Part shown: one piece after another, positions 1 through 8,269 of the stretch
Layout: the number at the start of each line of letters is the position of its first letter
Numbering within the stretch: position 1 is the stretch's first letter
DNA from: Caedimonas varicaedens
GTDB lineage: Bacteria; Pseudomonadota; Alphaproteobacteria; Caedimonadales; Caedimonadaceae
Direction of reading: 5' to 3'
Assembly (NCBI GenBank): GCA_001192655.1
Contig: BBVC01000003.1
Span: forward strand, 1-19,975
DNA length: 19,975 bases
Translations under genes and position numbers: made by a program
Notes under the pieces: generated by a model
Told to the model about the DNA's origin: nothing
Database searches by the model: none
The model's input: the letters and a program-made list of their open reading frames with translations, nothing else

Positions 1-633
1 CGACCTGTTGATAATATCCCTGTTCACAATCCTCTCGCAGGGATCAAACCTCAGCCTTCTAAAAAAGAGCCTTTCCAAACGGGGTCATCGTTGGAAGCTC
101 AATACTCAAGACTCAGGGTGCTGTACAACATGGCCGATTCTTGGGAGTGGCGGGAAATTTACCAGTATGCAAAAGTAATCGGTGTTTCCAGAGATGAAAT
201 TGCAAAATACAATTTAATTCAAAGACACTCAAACGGACAGACTTTTTCCTTGAAATATTTTAAAGAACTCAAAGAAGAAGAAGCGAGAAATGAACTGAAA
301 AAGAGGGAGCAGGAGGAAGAAAAAAGAGAAAAAGCTAGACAATATGAAGAAGAATCATCTCGTGCAGCCTCATCTTTATTTGATAATGTTCCTCCCCCTC
401 AGTATCAAGTAACGCCTGAGTATTTCACGCAGAGTGCTTCTGATGCGGGGATGAATCCTTCTCAGGCGCTTAACATTATTCTCAATCCCACCTCGGAGAA
501 CTTCTACGATCGCATTATCCTTACCTCCAGGCAAAACTGGCTGGGAGGGGCAAAGAATACCACGGCTTTCGGTTTTGAAGACCTTACCAATGAACAAGCT
601 TATAAATATATATCTCAAGGCTATAAACCATAG
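1..633 (+). CDS. Fragment A of a large repeat-containing toxin-like protein, 5'-truncated by the window edge and ending at an in-frame TAG
   Basis: Frame 1 is open from base 1 (RPVDNIPVHNPLAGIKPQPSKKEPF...), so the gene starts upstream of the window. The TTG at 91 in the ORF track is not a credible start. It contains a charged KE-rich linker and then repeat unit 1. It stops at TAG 631-633, where the paralogous repeat unit has CAG. Confidence 0.75.
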   Translation, partial: RPVDNIPVHNPLAGIKPQPSKKEPFQTGSSLEAQYSRLRVLYNMADSWEWREIYQYAKVIGVSRDEIAKYNLIQRHSNGQTFSLKYFKELKEEEARNELKKREQEEEKREKARQYEEESSRAASSLFDNVPPPQYQVTPEYFTQSASDAGMNPSQALNIILNPTSENFYDRIILTSRQNWLGGAKNTTAFGFEDLTNEQAYKYISQGYKP

Positions 634-1251
634 GATTTTCCTACTCTCTCTAACAGACTTGTCTGTCAGAGGGGAAGCTCTCTATTCAAGGATGTAACGT
701 CTGAGTATTTTTCCAAGCAGGCAGAAAAAGCAAAGATGACATCGATGCAGGCGTTAGCAATTCTGATGAATCCCACTCCTGAGAATTTCTATGATCGCGT
801 GATACTCACGTCAAGACAGAACTGGCTGGGAGGGGCAGAGAATACCACGGCTTTCGGTTTTGAAGACCTTACCAATCAACAGGCTTATAAATATATCTCT
901 CAGGGCTATAAATCTCAGGATTTTCCTACTCTCTCTAACAGACTCATCTCTCAAAGAGGAGCGACTTTATTTGAGAACGTAACCCCTGATTACTTTGTAA
1001 AACAGGCTGAAAAAACGGGAATGACGCCTATGCAATCCCTAGCCATTCTGATGAATCCAACGCTTGAAAATGCCTATGAGCGTGTGTTGCTGGCTTCACG
1101 ACAAAATTATCTGGGTGGAAATCATGATCTGTTTGTGTTTCGAGATATTGGTATTACTGTAGGGGAAGCTTACGACCATCTGTTAACTCATATCAAAAAT
1201 AAGGAAAGTTTCTCTCAATTATTAGATGACAGCACCAATAAAATCATTAAA
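370..1251 (+). repeat. Three in-frame tandem coding repeats of 306, 285 and ~285 nt (~95 aa per unit)
   Basis: The unit consensus is SLF-x-NV-TP-EYF-x-QAEK-x-GM-x-P-x-QAL-x-IL-MNPT-x-ENFYDR-x-ILTSRQNWLGG-x-x-NTTAFGFEDLTN-x-QAYKYISQGYK-x-Q-DFPTLSNRL-x-x-QRG. The Leu of SLF falls at 376, 682 and 967. Unit 1 carries an extra PPPQYQV. Unit 3 is much more diverged. Confidence 0.9.
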
Positions 1252-2127
1252 GACGGATTTACCCAATTCTGTCTGGAACGTTATCACACCCTCTATGGTT
1301 CTTTTTATGGTGAATACGAGAAAGTGAAGCATCTTCAATATCTCATTAATACAACCACATGGGAAGCAACCTATAATTATGCCGATAAAGAGGGATTTTC
1401 TAAAGAAAATGTTCAGTATGTTGAGTCGAGAAGAAAAGAGACCATCACTTTTGACAGCTACATGAAAGAAATTCTTGATAGTAACATTGCCAAAGATATA
1501 TTGATGAGCTTTTCCTTTCCTTCAGGAGTGTTAGAATCTCTCGCAGAGACTTTTATTCCAGGTCGGGATTTAAGTACGCTTCAAACGGATTTGGTTCATT
1601 TAAAGGAACACATTGTTGATAGCATTCTAAGTTATGGAGAGATATGGAGAGAAGGCGGGGAGGATTTAGCTGCTCTGTTGAGTGATCATCCTGCCTTAAA
1701 AAAGGTTTTTGGAGAGACGGGACAAACCGCAGGCATCATTTTTGGTGTAGGGGTGGTAGCTCCCAAAGGATTTAAAGCTAATCCCCATAAACCGAGGGTA
1801 TTTGCTAATAAAACTCCCCCTGTTCTGCAACGACAACCCGATTTTAAATGGAATGTGAAAGAGGCTAATGTTGCAGATAAAGTTGGAAGGCATCCGAAAT
1901 TTGGAAACATGTACAAAGACCCTACTCAAAAAGTTGGAAACAAAGAAATTTATTGGTCAAAAGACATTGGTGGAAAAAACGCGCATGCAGGCGAGCATTA
2001 TAAATTATTTGAAAAACGGGGACAAAATTATGAATGGATTGCTGATGTTGATAAAACAGGAAAAGTGATGCTGAAACATAAGAGTGATGTGGGCAAAATT
2101 ATTCCTGACAATGAAATCATTAAGTAG
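736..2127 (+). CDS. Fragment B of the same toxin-like protein: repeat units 2-3, a helical middle region and a C-terminal toxin-like domain
   Basis: It is in the same frame as 1..633, and that frame is open continuously from 634. The first ATG (736) lies in the middle of repeat unit 2, so it is not a natural start. The two ORFs therefore read as one gene split by a single stop codon. Its TAG stop (2125-2127) overlaps the AGGAG ribosome-binding site of the next ORF. Confidence 0.75.
   Translation: MTSMQALAILMNPTPENFYDRVILTSRQNWLGGAENTTAFGFEDLTNQQAYKYISQGYKSQDFPTLSNRLISQRGATLFENVTPDYFVKQAEKTGMTPMQSLAILMNPTLENAYERVLLASRQNYLGGNHDLFVFRDIGITVGEAYDHLLTHIKNKESFSQLLDDSTNKIIKDGFTQFCLERYHTLYGSFYGEYEKVKHLQYLINTTTWEATYNYADKEGFSKENVQYVESRRKETITFDSYMKEILDSNIAKDILMSFSFPSGVLESLAETFIPGRDLSTLQTDLVHLKEHIVDSILSYGEIWREGGEDLAALLSDHPALKKVFGETGQTAGIIFGVGVVAPKGFKANPHKPRVFANKTPPVLQRQPDFKWNVKEANVADKVGRHPKFGNMYKDPTQKVGNKEIYWSKDIGGKNAHAGEHYKLFEKRGQNYEWIADVDKTGKVMLKHKSDVGKIIPDNEIIK
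1777..2124 (+). other. C-terminal toxin-like domain (~115 aa), possibly a colicin E3/cloacin-like RNase fold
   Basis: It follows a Gly/hydrophobic segment (GQTAGIIFGVGVVAPKG). The ordered motifs are EIYW (1945-1956), H-A-G-E-H (1984-1998) and G-Q-x(7)-D-V-D-K-T-G-K-x-x-L-K (2050-2061 covers DKTG). As I remember it, the colicin E3 C-terminus has KIYEW, QHGELE and GQHLGSFDPKTGNQLK in the same order. Confidence 0.4.
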
Positions 2128-2136
2128 GAGAATAAA

Positions 2137-2508
2137 ATGAGAGATCATTGCTGTGATATCATGGAAAATTATTCTACGAGCGATAACTGCTTTATTGAAT
2201 ACGTTCCAGAAACTCGCTCATATAGTTTTTATCTGACAAACCATCCTAATGGTACTCGTCAAAAAATGTATTATTGCTTTTGGTGTGGTTCTGAGTTGCC
2301 GAAAGATTTAAATGAAGAATGGAGTACAATACTAAAGGCAGATTATGGCATAGAAGATGCAGGTTTTCCTTGGAACAAAGAAAATATACCTTTAGAATTT
2401 AAGACGGACGAGTGGTGGAAAAAACGTAGATTAATCGATAAAAATCCATGTAGAGATCAAAGTGAAACAGGGGTTTTTATACCTATGAGTGAATTTACCA
2501 AAGAATAA
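2137..2508 (+). CDS. Small Cys-rich cytoplasmic protein, candidate cognate immunity protein
   Basis: AGGAG (2126-2130) overlaps the toxin stop codon and sits 6 nt before the ATG, a classic arrangement for translational coupling. No signal peptide is visible. It has an HCCD motif near the N-terminus, a YCFWCG motif (CC...CxxC, zinc-ribbon-like) and a TDEWWKKR motif near the C-terminus. It resembles a widespread small DUF-type family that I recall from immunity-like contexts. Confidence 0.55.
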   Translation: MRDHCCDIMENYSTSDNCFIEYVPETRSYSFYLTNHPNGTRQKMYYCFWCGSELPKDLNEEWSTILKADYGIEDAGFPWNKENIPLEFKTDEWWKKRRLIDKNPCRDQSETGVFIPMSEFTKE

Positions 2509-2525
2509 GAGAGGGATGTGATGAA

Positions 2526-2837
2526 ATGATTCAAATTTCTGCTATGAAAATAACTTATTTATTTCTACTCCTGAAAACCTCCAGTTATTTAATGGCCTCT
2601 AGCTACAACAGTAGTCCATATAACTATAAAAATAGCCCCTATAATTACGATAATAGCCAGTATAATTATAAGAATAACCCTTACAATTATGACAATAGTC
2701 CATATAACCCCAGTAATGACCGAATTATTCGTAATGAAAGAGGTCAGGAAATGGGCTATATGGTTCCAAAGGATGATGGTGGGGCTAATATTTTTGACTT
2801 CAATGGTAATCGATTAGGTTATCTTTCTTCCGATTAA
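2526..2837 (+). CDS. Small, probably secreted protein with five SPYNY(K/D)N heptad repeats
   Basis: A GAGGGA Shine-Dalgarno-like sequence lies upstream, 17 nt after the previous stop. The N-terminus is hydrophobic (MKITYLFLLLKTSSYLMA). It is followed by 5 x 7-aa Asn/Tyr/Pro repeats and a C-terminal G-x-x-G-Y motif pair (GQEMGYMV ... NGNRLGYL). An alternative start is ATG 2544. Confidence 0.6.
   Translation: MIQISAMKITYLFLLLKTSSYLMASSYNSSPYNYKNSPYNYDNSQYNYKNNPYNYDNSPYNPSNDRIIRNERGQEMGYMVPKDDGGANIFDFNGNRLGYLSSD
2613..2717 (+). repeat. Five tandem 21-nt coding repeats
   Basis: The units are agtccatataactataaaaat, agcccctataattacgataat, agccagtataattataagaat, aacccttacaattatgacaat and agtccatataaccccagtaat. 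They are in frame and encode [S/N][P/Q]YN[Y/P][K/D/S]N. Confidence 0.95.
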
Positions 2838-2863
2838 TAAAAAAGATTTGATTCATTAACACA

Positions 2864-2905
2864 AAATTCAAAACCGATGAATGGTGGAAGAAGCGGGGAT
2901 TGTAA
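2864..2905 (+). pseudogene. 3'-terminal remnant of a second, diverged paralogue of the candidate immunity gene
   Basis: It reads KFKTDEWWKKRGL-stop, compared with EFKTDEWWKKRRL at 2395..2433 in the intact gene. An in-frame TGA at 2849-2851 lies just upstream, so only about 17 codons are open. Confidence 0.6.
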
Positions 2906-2956
2906 ATAGCTTTTTATAAAAAGCGCCCTCAGAGCAAAGCAAGAAAATTGAAAACA

Positions 2957-4333
2957 TCAATAATAATCCAAACGTGAAGAGAAGAGCTTTTCAATTTTTG
3001 AAATAGCCGCAGGCGTCACCATCAAAATAATGCGGTCTTCCAGTTTAATCGCCGTCGATGGCATGGGAATAATAACCTCTTCTTGCCTTATAATAGCGGC
3101 TACAATAATTTCATGAGGACTGTTGATGTCGCTGACAGGAGAGCCAATGAGACCCGAAGATTCCTGGGCTTCTGCTTCAATGATCTCCCCAAAGCTTTCC
3201 CCCAGCGAATGAACAGAACGAATCCTTCCGCGACGAATATTTTGCAAAATCTTTGATACAGTGACTTTTTTAGGACTAATAACAGCATCAACCCCCAAAG
3301 AAGTCACCAAAGGAGCATGAAGGGTATTGTTGATCAGACAAAGCGCCCGTGAGGCTCCCAATCTCTTTGATAAAAGAGAGGCTAGCGTATTGACACGCTC
3401 ATCTTCCGTCACAGCAACAACCGTTTCTGCAACGTTGATATTTGCTTCGTACAAGACTTCACTATCCAAGGCATCTCCCTGCAAGACAAGAGTGTTTTTC
3501 AGTTCCCCTGCAATGAATTCAGCACGTGCAAGATCTTTTTCAATAATCTCAGCATGAACATTAGGATGGTGTTTTTCGATCTCCTGGGCAAGGCAAAGTC
3601 CAATATTCCCCCCACCCAATATTAATAAACGCCGAGAATCGGAACTTTCATGACCAAAGGCACGCATCGCCTCTGGAACTTTGTCTTTATCCACGGCAAA
3701 ATAAACTTCATCCCCCGCATAGAGTGTATCGGTAAGAGTCGGTAAAATCGCTTGATCTCCTCGCATGATCCCTACAACACAAATATCAATCTGAGGGAAA
3801 AGACTTGTAAGGTGAGTAATGGGCGTATTGACAATCGGTGTGTCAAGGGTACACCGAACACCGATAATTTTCACCTTGCCATCAGAAAGAGAAATAATAT
3901 CAAAAGCTCCAGGAACTGTTAGCGAGCGGCTTATAGACTGTGCCACTTCCAACTCTGGTGATATGACCAAATCAATATTAATGCGCTCTGGGCTATAAAG
4001 TCGGCTCCATCGCGGATCTAGATAGGCTTGCGCACGAATTCGCGCAACTTTGGTACGTACATTAAAAAGGCTGCCTGCTGTTTGACAGGCAACAATGTTA
4101 ACTTCATCAGACTGTGTAACCGCAATCAGCATCTCTGCGTTGCCTGCTTCTGCCTTTTCCAGCACATCAGGATGAGAGGCAAAGCCACAAATAGCCCGCA
4201 CATCCAGACGATCATTAATCCTGTTGATAAGTTCTGACGATTGGTCAATCACTGTTACATGATTATCATGCTCAGAAAGATAAGTGGCAAGATTAAACCC
4301 AACTTGCCCTGCTCCGCAAATAATAACGCGCAT
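2957..4333 (-). CDS. trkA: Trk potassium uptake system, NAD-binding subunit TrkA
   Basis: At 458 aa it is the same length as E. coli TrkA. It has two Rossmann GxGxxG motifs (ICGAGQVG and LILGGGNIG), each followed by a TrkA-C-like segment, and is alignable with E. coli TrkA along its length. Confidence 0.93.
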   Translation of the reverse strand: MRVIICGAGQVGFNLATYLSEHDNHVTVIDQSSELINRINDRLDVRAICGFASHPDVLEKAEAGNAEMLIAVTQSDEVNIVACQTAGSLFNVRTKVARIRAQAYLDPRWSRLYSPERINIDLVISPELEVAQSISRSLTVPGAFDIISLSDGKVKIIGVRCTLDTPIVNTPITHLTSLFPQIDICVVGIMRGDQAILPTLTDTLYAGDEVYFAVDKDKVPEAMRAFGHESSDSRRLLILGGGNIGLCLAQEIEKHHPNVHAEIIEKDLARAEFIAGELKNTLVLQGDALDSEVLYEANINVAETVVAVTEDERVNTLASLLSKRLGASRALCLINNTLHAPLVTSLGVDAVISPKKVTVSKILQNIRRGRIRSVHSLGESFGEIIEAEAQESSGLIGSPVSDINSPHEIIVAAIIRQEEVIIPMPSTAIKLEDRIILMVTPAAISKIEKLFSSRLDYY

Positions 4334-5727: not shown

Positions 5728-8003
5728 TATACTTCCATTATCTGATCATCAGACGAACCATATTGCCCAGAGAATGATCCTTCATGGGTTGGAACAATAA
5801 TTCCCAGCGGAAAACTCATTCTGACGCATGCCCCACCCTCTGTCTTATTTTCGAGGGATAGCTCGCCCGAATGATCTTCCACAATTTTCTTCACAATAGC
5901 CAATCCTAGTCCTGTCCCCTTTTCCCTTAATGTTACATAGGGATCTAGCAGGTGTGATTTTTTCTCTGGGAACCCTTCCCCATTGTCTTCTATTATGATA
6001 ACAAGACGTTTTTGATCCTGAAATACAATAATGACAATCTGTCCCTTAGACAAAAGATCACTCTTATTTTTGTCGCTCAAACTTTCAATTGAGTCAATGG
6101 CATTTTGCAGAAGATTCGTAAAAACTTGACCCATCTGAGAAGAGTCACAAAGAATTTTCAATGATTTGTTGGTACATTCAATTTTAAATTCAATATGAGG
6201 ATATGCTGATTTTTGTAAAAATATAGCTTGCTGACATAATTCCATCAAATTTTCGGGAACCATTTTTGGGCTAGGCATTCTGGCAAAACTTGAAAATTCG
6301 GAAACCAGTCGTTCCATTTGATCGACTTGGCGAATAATTGTATCAATACATTTTTCAAAGCTTGCTCGATCTCCCTGAATATCTTTAAGATATTTTCGTC
6401 GCAATCTTTCTGCTGATAATTGGATGGGCGTCAGAGGATTCTTGATTTCGTGAGCAATTCTCCTTGCTACATCTGACCACGTTGCCTTGCGCTGTGCTGC
6501 CATCAATGCCGTAATATCATCAAAAGTAATAATAAATCCGCGTAGTGTTTTTTCTCTATACTCCAACACAATCCGCACCAGAAGCGTTTTTGTAAAGCCA
6601 TGTCGTGTCACCGAAAGCTCATTTTGATAAAAACGATTTTCACTTTCAAAAGCTCGCCCCAAATATTCCATCATTTCAGGCACAATATTTTCAATATTTT
6701 TACCGATGATCGATTCATTTCCCAATGCTAAAAGATCAACAGCTGAACGATTCAAGAGACGAATCTGGCCATCCACAGAAATTTCAATCACGCCGGCTGT
6801 AACACCCCCCAGCACATCTTCAATAAATTGACGCCGTTGATCTATTTGTTGGTTCGCTTCAACAAGCTCTTGCTGTTGGGTTTTCAGCTCTGTGGTCATT
6901 CGATTGAAAGCACGCGAGAGAATGGAAATTTCATCCTCAGAGGTTTTTTCAGAAACCTGAATCGCGTAATTTCCTTGCCGCACGCTCTCAGCAGCAAAGA
7001 TAAGCTCACTAATAGGCCGCGCCATATGATCAGCGAAGAGGAGTCCCATCCATACAGCCGCAAGCAACAGAATCAAGGCAACAATAATAAAGGATACCGC
7101 AAGCTTGATCTCAAGATCATTTTGCAGCGCTTCCAACTGGTTGTATTCACTGACAGCATTGCGCGTATTATCAATGCGTTTCAAGACTCCCCTGTCCAAA
7201 TAACGTCCCGCAATAATGAAAGCATCTGTGTGAGGAATGCGTGTAAAAGCGCGTACACGATCACCACTCTCGCTCGTTTGCAGGATAATTCTATTTTGTG
7301 CTCTTTGAAGATCAATCAAACTGAGAGATTCAAATTCAAGAGAAAAGCTCAGATGAGTGCGCGCATAAATTTTATGGTTTAATCCAAAAATAATGCCTTC
7401 ATTCAAAGACATGATAAAACATTCTTTATCAAGTTCCTCGCTGAAATATTCTTGGTTTTCCGCATACCGGTTAAAATTTTCAGAGAATTTCAATGCCAGT
7501 GCATTAACACTTGTACTAATGGCTTTTTTATGTTCTTCAAGATAAGCTTCAGCAACAGCCGACGATTCATTAAGCGCTGTGCGAACCCGTTCATTAAACC
7601 AGGCCTGAATTCCCTCATTAAATAAAAGGGCGGATGAAATCGCAATAAAGACTGTTGGAACAACCGTTAGGGCGCCAAAAATCAAAGCAAGTCGCAAATG
7701 AAGTTTCGATCCTGCCCGACCACTCCGCCTTTGAGACCATAGGTTGACAATCCGTCGTGAAATTAAAAAACCCAACAAAAGAAGAATGATAAGGTCAAAA
7801 TTAAGAAGATGGACAATTTTGCGGGAATTTCCGCCCAAAAGGACAGAATTGGTAAAGGCACTATAGGTTGCGATACCAGCTCCCACCGCAATAATAAGTA
7901 AAAGAGCAACAAGCTTTTGAGAAAGCTTGAAGCGTTGCGCCCAGTAATAAAAAGTTTCAGAAAAAGCGCGTGTTTTTGCTTTCAGAAAGCCTATCATCGT
8001 CAA
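5727..8003 (-). CDS. ntrY: Sensor histidine kinase NtrY (transmembrane, HAMP, PAS, HisKA and HATPase domains)
   Basis: It has N-terminal transmembrane helices, the H-box HEIKNPLTPIQLSAERLRRK, and N and G boxes (DNGEGF, GTGLGLAIVKKIVEDH). The track start is TTG 8003, but ATG at 7997 (MIGFLK...) is equally plausible. Confidence 0.9.
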   Translation of the reverse strand: MTMIGFLKAKTRAFSETFYYWAQRFKLSQKLVALLLIIAVGAGIATYSAFTNSVLLGGNSRKIVHLLNFDLIILLLLGFLISRRIVNLWSQRRSGRAGSKLHLRLALIFGALTVVPTVFIAISSALLFNEGIQAWFNERVRTALNESSAVAEAYLEEHKKAISTSVNALALKFSENFNRYAENQEYFSEELDKECFIMSLNEGIIFGLNHKIYARTHLSFSLEFESLSLIDLQRAQNRIILQTSESGDRVRAFTRIPHTDAFIIAGRYLDRGVLKRIDNTRNAVSEYNQLEALQNDLEIKLAVSFIIVALILLLAAVWMGLLFADHMARPISELIFAAESVRQGNYAIQVSEKTSEDEISILSRAFNRMTTELKTQQQELVEANQQIDQRRQFIEDVLGGVTAGVIEISVDGQIRLLNRSAVDLLALGNESIIGKNIENIVPEMMEYLGRAFESENRFYQNELSVTRHGFTKTLLVRIVLEYREKTLRGFIITFDDITALMAAQRKATWSDVARRIAHEIKNPLTPIQLSAERLRRKYLKDIQGDRASFEKCIDTIIRQVDQMERLVSEFSSFARMPSPKMVPENLMELCQQAIFLQKSAYPHIEFKIECTNKSLKILCDSSQMGQVFTNLLQNAIDSIESLSDKNKSDLLSKGQIVIIVFQDQKRLVIIIEDNGEGFPEKKSHLLDPYVTLREKGTGLGLAIVKKIVEDHSGELSLENKTEGGACVRMSFPLGIIVPTHEGSFSGQYGSSDDQIMEV

Positions 8004-8269
8004 CCTTGCCCAAGATCATGTTCCTGGATTTTCTTATAAAGCGTATTACGGTTAATCCCCAGCAATGCTGCTGCCTTAACTTTATTACCGTTTGTATGTT
8101 TAAGTACTGTAGAAATGAGGGGCTTTTCAATTTCACGAATAATATGCCCATAAAGGCATGGAGCAGGCTTATCACCATTCAAAGCCTTGAAGTAAGTCTT
8201 AAGCTTGCTTTCAACAACGCAAGCCAGACCAACTTCACAAGAATTTTTATCGTTTATATCTTTCATCAT
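8000..8269 (-). CDS. Fis-family / NtrC C-terminal-domain-like small DNA-binding protein (89 aa)
   Basis: KLKTYFKALNGDKPAPCLYGHIIREIEKPLISTVLKHTNGNKVKAAALLGINRNTLYKKIQEHD aligns with the Fis core, and more closely with the alphaproteobacterial NtrC C-terminus (..YF.AL....P..LY...L.E.E.PLI...L..T.GNQ.KAA.LLG.NRNTLRKKI.E). Its stop is 2 nt from, or overlapping, the ntrY start. Confidence 0.8.
   Translation of the reverse strand: MMKDINDKNSCEVGLACVVESKLKTYFKALNGDKPAPCLYGHIIREIEKPLISTVLKHTNGNKVKAAALLGINRNTLYKKIQEHDLGQG

Follow-up and report, generated by a model that had tools for sequence, protein, structure and literature searches.

A probable polymorphic toxin–immunity locus with an undescribed carrier protein in the Paramecium symbiont Caedimonas varicaedens

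The stretch of DNA analyzed here (the window, 19,975 base pairs) is one complete contig of the 454/Newbler draft genome of Caedimonas varicaedens, a kappa "killer" symbiont whose host is Paramecium biaurelia (PMC4645214). Its bases 1-2905 very probably represent the distal portion of a locus for a polymorphic toxin and its immunity protein: a large modular gene entering from beyond the contig end, a putative C-terminal toxin domain (the tip) and, directly behind it, a predicted immunity gene of the DUF6980 family. The original prediction, made from the letters alone, had already proposed a locus of this class, and comparison with related sequences upholds it: tips are swapped between otherwise similar proteins, the immunity genes vary with them, and homologues of the tip occur on Rhs, CdiA-like and PT-HINT proteins. 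The carrier would add a new delivery scaffold to the polymorphic-toxin repertoire, so far confined to Caedimonas-like symbionts; the comparison also defines a widespread, unnamed C-terminal toxin family and gives DUF6980 a probable immunity role. The features are as follows (aa, amino acids; nt, nucleotides; ORF, open reading frame).

1..2127 (+): putative polymorphic-toxin gene, 3' 2.1 kb with one interruption, N-terminus past the contig end (frame-1 translation; relatives)
631..633 (+): in-frame TAG nonsense codon (TGG in the closest relative, L001)
367..1230 (+): tandem repeat of about 95 aa in three copies, the third diverged, at approximately 367-672, 673-957 and 958-1230 (Tandem Repeats Finder, register marks, self-similarity)
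1231..1479 (+): carrier extension up to the conserved junction ...ITFDSYMKE (identity to L001, 96%, ends precisely at 1479)
1480..1815 (+): pre-toxin linker, specific to the cassette type (common to P0001/L006 and L025; not found in L001, L002, L007 or L008)
1711-1770 (+): Gly/hydrophobic segment GETGQTAGIIFGVGVVAPKG inside the pre-toxin linker (sequence)
1816..2124 (+): predicted C-terminal toxin domain, about 101-103 aa, unnamed family (homology boundaries, start at 1816/1822)
2126..2130 (+): Shine-Dalgarno sequence AGGAG overlapping the toxin stop codon (direct reading of the sequence)
2137..2508 (+): DUF6980 gene Cva_00053, probable cognate immunity gene (PF22400 score; repeated pairing with the tip)
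2526..2837 (+): 103-aa ORF Cva_00054 with (S/N)PYNY repeats (tandem repeats; no homologue at related loci)
2864..2905 (+): relic, last 13 codons and stop of a second, displaced DUF6980 gene (matches other DUF6980 3' ends)
2957..4333 (-): trkA, right boundary of the cassette and first gene of a convergent housekeeping block (TrkA_N and TrkA_C hits)

Alignment and Pfam searches of the relatives (loci carry L numbers, proteins P numbers) indicate that one carrier bears at least eight C-terminal tip classes. The alignment distinguishes window-type tips, tips paired with a DUF7945 gene and at least four unnamed classes. Two of the C-termini pass curated Pfam thresholds, for Ntox28 (35 bits) and for the colicin-E3 'Cytotoxic' domain (36 bits), and at least six classes are nameless. 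The window-type tip, which begins at about PPVLQRQPDFKW and continues to the end of the protein, is found on four carrier variants (P0001/L006; P0010/L003-5; the repeat-less 1,002-aa protein of L007/L008; L027) and, as P0012, in the form of a stand-alone orphan. In every case it is followed by a DUF6980 gene, which overlaps it or lies a few bases away (L003-L010, L019, L020, L025, L027 and an orphan module of GCA_041443065.1). A second tip type invariably has a DUF7945 gene behind it, and a third has a 187-aa ORF. Exchange of C-termini together with immunity genes, the comparison that the original prediction had put forward, is therefore clearly present in this family, both in the number of tip classes and in the pair of loci L001 and L025.

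The window itself is a mosaic. Bases 1-1479 are 96% identical to L001, the similarity ending exactly at the junction, and bases 1816-2510 share 92% DNA identity, beginning at 1816, with L008, whose carrier is different; recombination breakpoints thus lie at 1479 and 1816. These comparisons show that the window cassette came by recombination at the conserved junction 1479/1480 (C-terminal displacement) and that this displacement left behind the 3' stub of an earlier DUF6980 gene at 2864-2905. The stub, recognized in the original prediction as a remnant of a second copy of the 123-aa gene, reads KFKTDEWWKKRGL followed by the stop and differs from 2395-2433 almost only at synonymous third positions. 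Its DNA is 95%, 89% and 86% identical to the 3' ends of the full-length DUF6980 genes of L025, L006 and L008 respectively, and its peptide is identical to the C-termini of the second DUF6980 gene of L008 and of the immunity genes of L006, L025 and L027.

A similar event can be followed at a single chromosomal locus. L025 and L001 have downstream flanks that are 99.2% identical over 6.7 kb, and L025 corresponds to L001 with about 950 nt added at the junction; the added stretch encodes a pre-toxin linker, a tip of the window type and a DUF6980 protein. The insertion point is the junction corresponding to window 1479/1480. The former tip and its DUF7945 gene are kept downstream as an orphan module beginning MKEVFDDQVLEEWG and preceded by a duplicated piece of the junction. 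To judge from the alignment, the two loci are an unusually clean natural example of C-terminal displacement, a cassette swap in which the old module was retained as an orphan. As a separate observation, the related symbiont contig of GCA_041443065.1 encodes, directly after its orphan toxin–DUF6980 module, a 375-aa protein (gene at 3053-4180) combining F-box and leucine-rich repeat (LRR) domains, a eukaryote-like combination.

The original prediction had described a compact terminal domain of about 115 aa; the domain exists, but its boundaries by homology give about 101-103 aa. A profile search retrieved 216 proteins, about 120 of which include the tip domain, nearly all of them at most six residues from the C-terminus. 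Its carriers include CdiA-like (DUF637, Fil_haemagg_2), PT-HINT and Rhs proteins and extend to other phyla, the Rhs examples coming from Pantoea, Aquabacterium and a metagenome-assembled genome (MAG) of Tannerellaceae. We regard the tip, on this distribution, as the predicted toxin domain of an unnamed but widespread C-terminal family. In named genomes a small gene follows it at -35 to +7 nt: a DUF6980-like gene in Ca. Bandiella and an alphaproteobacterial MAG, a gene for a 135-aa HEAT/LRV protein in six loci and one for a 165-aa protein in two. The HEAT/LRV protein (MIRSAKEF...VAHNK..P.EIL; L011-L014, L017 and L024) is encoded 0-7 nt after the toxin stop or overlaps it, and probably represents another immunity family, unrelated to the first, that serves this toxin fold. 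Two further carriers are unusual, P0035 (1,891 aa, SecA-DEAD/helicase-like) and P0052 (635 aa, with ankyrin repeats), and hint at eukaryote-directed delivery in some lineages.

Within the family, residues H58 and K64 (domain numbering from base 1813) are invariant, and G31, W47, K50, D51, D78, D80, G83, K88-H89-K90 and G94 are highly conserved. The AlphaFold2 model of the tip (predicted local distance difference test, pLDDT, 85; predicted TM score 0.78) is beta-rich, with a short helix and six or seven strands. The tip is basic (isoelectric point, pI, 9.5) and the immunity protein acidic (pI 4.9), which may reflect the pattern usual for nuclease toxins. Two more specific assignments were rejected. 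The pattern WSKD...H.G..YK...D.D..G..KHK of the tip had suggested a likeness to colicin E3-type RNases (PF09000), but hhalign of the tip profile against the E3-type tips of P0019 and P0007 gives a probability of 0.6%, the window tip has no Pfam hit to this family and Foldseek against the PDB does not return colicin E3. Similarity to Ntox21 (PF15526) was judged to be noise: one of 35 family members matches at E = 0.018 and the window tip does not match.

The coupling of the two genes was read correctly in the original prediction. The TAG that ends the toxin frame (2125-2127) belongs to a TAGGAG placed 6 nt ahead of the ATG at 2137, and the 123-aa product of the ORF that begins there has six Cys and neither a hydrophobic N-terminus nor a signal peptide. 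It scores 39.4 bits against PF22400 (DUF6980; gathering cutoff 27) over residues 4-96, and the motifs CC...CxxC and EFKTDEWWKKRGL are conserved; Pfam lists the family without a function. The window member has a C-terminal extension of about 24 aa, otherwise present only in its closest relatives, in L007 and L008. Because the gene is repeatedly paired with the tip, its product is predicted, as a probable assignment, to be the cytoplasmic antidote of the window tip. It probably also binds zinc.

The third small ORF lies 17 nt after 2508, as had been noted, and encodes 103 aa (Cva_00054). Tandem 21/42-nt repeats (2604-2708) encode roughly five copies of (S/N)PYNY(K/D)N, and the tail is KWG-like. 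In UniRef the ORF carries the label 'KWG Leptospira', and a Pfam scan gives no hit. It occupies the site where relatives hold the body of the second DUF6980 gene. The original prediction missed that it is no part of the conserved system: no related locus has a homologue. It is thereby ruled out as a third component and is probably unrelated to the toxin system.

The carrier is known mainly from its relatives. The window gene is 80-94% identical to the full-length proteins P0001 and P0003. Full-length relatives open with a Sec-type signal peptide (...NNLAFA/TQS, judged by inspection of the alignment) and a conserved N-domain some 130 aa long. A stretch rich in Gly, a middle part that varies and a segment rich in Glu and Lys come next, and behind them two to four copies of the 95-aa repeat. 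The junction then reads FDDQVLEDWG (or FDSYMKE in a longer variant) and leads into a member-specific C-terminus. The tandem repeats of about 95 aa reported in the original prediction are real: Tandem Repeats Finder gives a period of 285 nt (484-1086, 2.1 copies, 79% matches), register marks lie at 409/694/979, and the more diverged third copy is visible by protein self-similarity. Outside the carrier family, P0031 and P0066 were the only proteins seen to have this repeat.

Carrier relatives are few: 11 came from a search of 5.8 billion proteins, about 20 more with the N-terminal part from a profile search against 1.84 billion representatives, and just three further loci from a metagenome scan. 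Scans of 185,579 reference genomes and of IMG/VR yielded none, and the family has so far been seen solely in Caedimonas-like contigs. Pfam and NCBIfam searches of all parts of the window protein, and Pfam searches of the full-length relatives, gave no match for the carrier; this includes the N-terminal regions of P0001, P0007, P0008 and P0010 (Pfam) and the pre-toxin linker at 1480-1815 (Pfam). Two proteins considered as sharers of the pre-toxin region, P0120 and P0119, were discarded, BLAST showing no similarity between them and the window protein. The suggestion of an undescribed delivery scaffold in the original prediction thus holds, and the carrier appears to match no described trafficking domain. 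Upstream of the relatives' toxins lie a helix-turn-helix (HTH) protein gene, reb genes or nothing.

The copy in the window is probably no longer functional. Frame 1 can be read from base 1 to the TAG at 2125-2127, in agreement with the very large ORF of the original prediction, which however overlooked an in-frame TAG at 631-633. The sole GenBank annotation within the large frame, Cva_00052, is identical to the 463-aa product of 736-2127, and inspection reveals no good ribosome-binding site upstream of its ATG at 736. The toxin gene is therefore probably a pseudogene, and its immunity gene is intact. The nonsense codon parts the export section from the toxin section, and this copy probably no longer yields an exported toxin. 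Recoding is ruled out, TAG also terminating typA and the toxin gene itself. The ratio of nonsynonymous to synonymous substitution rates (dN/dS) is 0.05 for the tip against L008 (dS = 0.40), 0.25 for the immunity gene and approximately 0.36 for the carrier. These low values imply purifying selection on the cassette, so that the nonsense mutation must be recent.

Alternatively, the codon at 631-633 could be a sequencing or assembly artefact, or a minority variant, and the gene would then be intact and encode a working exported toxin. It differs from the TGG of L001 by a single G>A change, in a repetitive region with paralogues 96% identical that is prone to mis-assembly, and dN/dS after the stop (0.35) does not exceed that before it (0.42), nor does that of the tip. 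On the other hand, errors of 454 sequencing are mainly homopolymer indels rather than substitutions, and two sister copies, which come from independent metagenomes, have different lesions of their own: L025 by a CAG>TAG change at another codon (L025:1239-1241), L001 by two frameshifts (L001:1-330). An intact window gene is thus rather unlikely, if by no means far-fetched. The three copies (window, L025 and L001) are 94-98% identical and each is disrupted differently, a pattern that suggests repeated inactivation and ongoing decay of these toxin genes, the immunity genes staying intact.

The locus shares with polymorphic toxins in general (Zhang et al. 2012 Biol Direct 7:18; Jamet & Nassif 2015) a large modular protein with an interchangeable tip, an immunity gene immediately downstream that changes with the tip, orphans and relics, and recombination at a conserved junction. 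It differs in its carrier, whose N-domain, 95-aa repeats and junction (FDDQVLEDWG / FDSYMKE) match no described trafficking domain, in a tip family and DUF6980 partner that are uncharacterized, and in having no adjacent secretion-system genes. Similarities with contact-dependent inhibition (CDI) and Rhs systems concern the tip: distant homologues of it form part of CdiA-like proteins (Fil_haemagg_2, DUF637) and of Rhs proteins whose genes each have a small gene behind them, and rhs and cdi loci undergo C-terminal displacement with orphan modules as in Caedimonas. The Caedimonas carrier, however, lacks the TPS domain, haemagglutinin repeats and DUF637 (Pfam, on the window protein and full-length relatives) and the VENN motif (alignment). 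Neither cdiB-like nor vgrG/PAAR genes were seen in the flanks of family members. The family also has no RHS_repeat/RHS hits, YD repeats or Rhs core (PxxxxDPxGL), and it gives no LXG hit; LXG/type VII systems differ further in that the organism here is an alphaproteobacterium. The overall architecture resembles that of MafB/MafI of Neisseria, likewise a Gram-negative bacterium: there too, a Sec signal peptide and a conserved N-terminal domain precede a variable toxin, an immunity gene accompanies it, and no dedicated outer-membrane secretion route is obvious from the locus. The Caedimonas relatives differ in the absence of DUF1020, of an upstream mafA-like lipoprotein gene and of sequence similarity.

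As a likely mode of action, the toxin would be exported to the periplasm and from there reach a target cell, where it might attack a cytoplasmic target, most likely nucleic acid; the producer would be shielded by the immunity protein binding the toxin 1:1. Several points weigh against a toxin–immunity locus. The signal peptide of the window gene is assumed from its relatives, its own N-terminus lying off the contig, and no secretion-partner gene was seen in the flanks of any family member. The tip has no match in Pfam or NCBIfam, none among PDB sequences (searched with a single sequence and with a 35-sequence profile) and nothing below E = 0.09 with Foldseek against the PDB (models of pLDDT 71 and 85) and BFVD. 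A full-text literature search for 'DUF6980' returned no paper. The TAG at 631-633 could be an assembly error. Finally, C. varicaedens is an obligate intracellular symbiont, so that the target cell is not evident. Polymorphic toxins have been reported before in another Holosporales symbiont, Ca. Bodocaedibacter vickermanii, where an addiction mechanism was proposed (PMC8163844).

The large protein might, in contrast, be a repetitive surface or host-interaction protein, the small ORFs being unrelated to it and no toxin system being present. The window protein, which has no Pfam domain, and its tip, which has no fold match, would fit such an interpretation. It does not account for sister proteins on the same carrier that end in the curated toxin domains Ntox28 and colicin-E3 'Cytotoxic', for the terminal position of the tip on Rhs, CdiA and PT-HINT proteins, or for the strict co-variation of tip type and downstream gene and the presence of orphan modules. 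We consider it hardly credible.

A third interpretation concerns the killer trait. The killer toxin has been sought for decades and remains unknown in reviews of 2025-2026, which list it as unidentified, probably a protein with an antidote and linked to phages or plasmids, with killing symptoms that differ with bacterial genotype (PMC11909080; PMC13430693). The present family could be this protein toxin, delivered from R-body-bearing kappa cells into sensitive paramecia: the periplasmic toxin would be freed on lysis in the food vacuole and pass into the cytoplasm once the unrolling R body breaks the vacuole open, and the paired small proteins would be the 'antidote' for the producer and perhaps for the host too. 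In phage-like elements at L002:5810-11286 and L027:1565-7297, the RebB cluster has a toxin of the family with its immunity gene directly downstream. Both loci have identical sets of reb genes but different tip/immunity cassettes, that of L027 being a window-type tip with DUF6980. The toxin of L007 abuts the same tail-fibre/700-aa module as is present in the reb-linked element. The protein-plus-antidote expectation, the mobile elements and the genotype-dependent symptoms of the reviews all agree with this, as does a family having a signal peptide and no visible secretion partner.

The commoner reb layout speaks against it. In P22-like prophages (L029:10001-16109, L030:743-9498, L031:966-7525), ordered terminase-reb-HU-portal, four RebB-family genes form a cargo, flanked on one side by the large terminase gene and on the other by two HU-like genes and the portal gene, and no family member is found within 10 kb of reb; a general linkage between reb and these toxins is therefore not supported. 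The reb adjacency represents a single type of locus in a pair of closely related strains, the copy in the window adjoins trkA rather than reb and is interrupted, and the tip family also occurs on Rhs/CdiA proteins of free-living bacteria, which are typically antibacterial. Identity with the killer toxin is thus possible but improbable on these genomic data. If true, interchangeable tips would explain strain-specific killing symptoms and the cognate small proteins (DUF6980, DUF7945 and others) the self-resistance of killers. The family members are concrete and directly testable candidates.

Promoter and terminator scans gave results no better than chance. To the right of 2957, the window carries housekeeping genes: trkA, ntrX, ntrY, a Fis-type HTH gene, ftsY, gpmI, thrS, a gene for a polyhydroxybutyrate depolymerase, typA and a SCO1 gene. 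In many alphaproteobacteria ntrYX-trkA is followed by hfq-hflX. Here (window 2906-4333) the neighbor of trkA is the toxin cassette and not hfq-hflX, and the cassette may lie at a synteny break beside trkA. The Fis-type HTH ORF (88 aa; 8000-8269, - strand) ends 4 nt into the start of ntrY and resembles a stand-alone DNA-binding domain at the position expected for ntrC.

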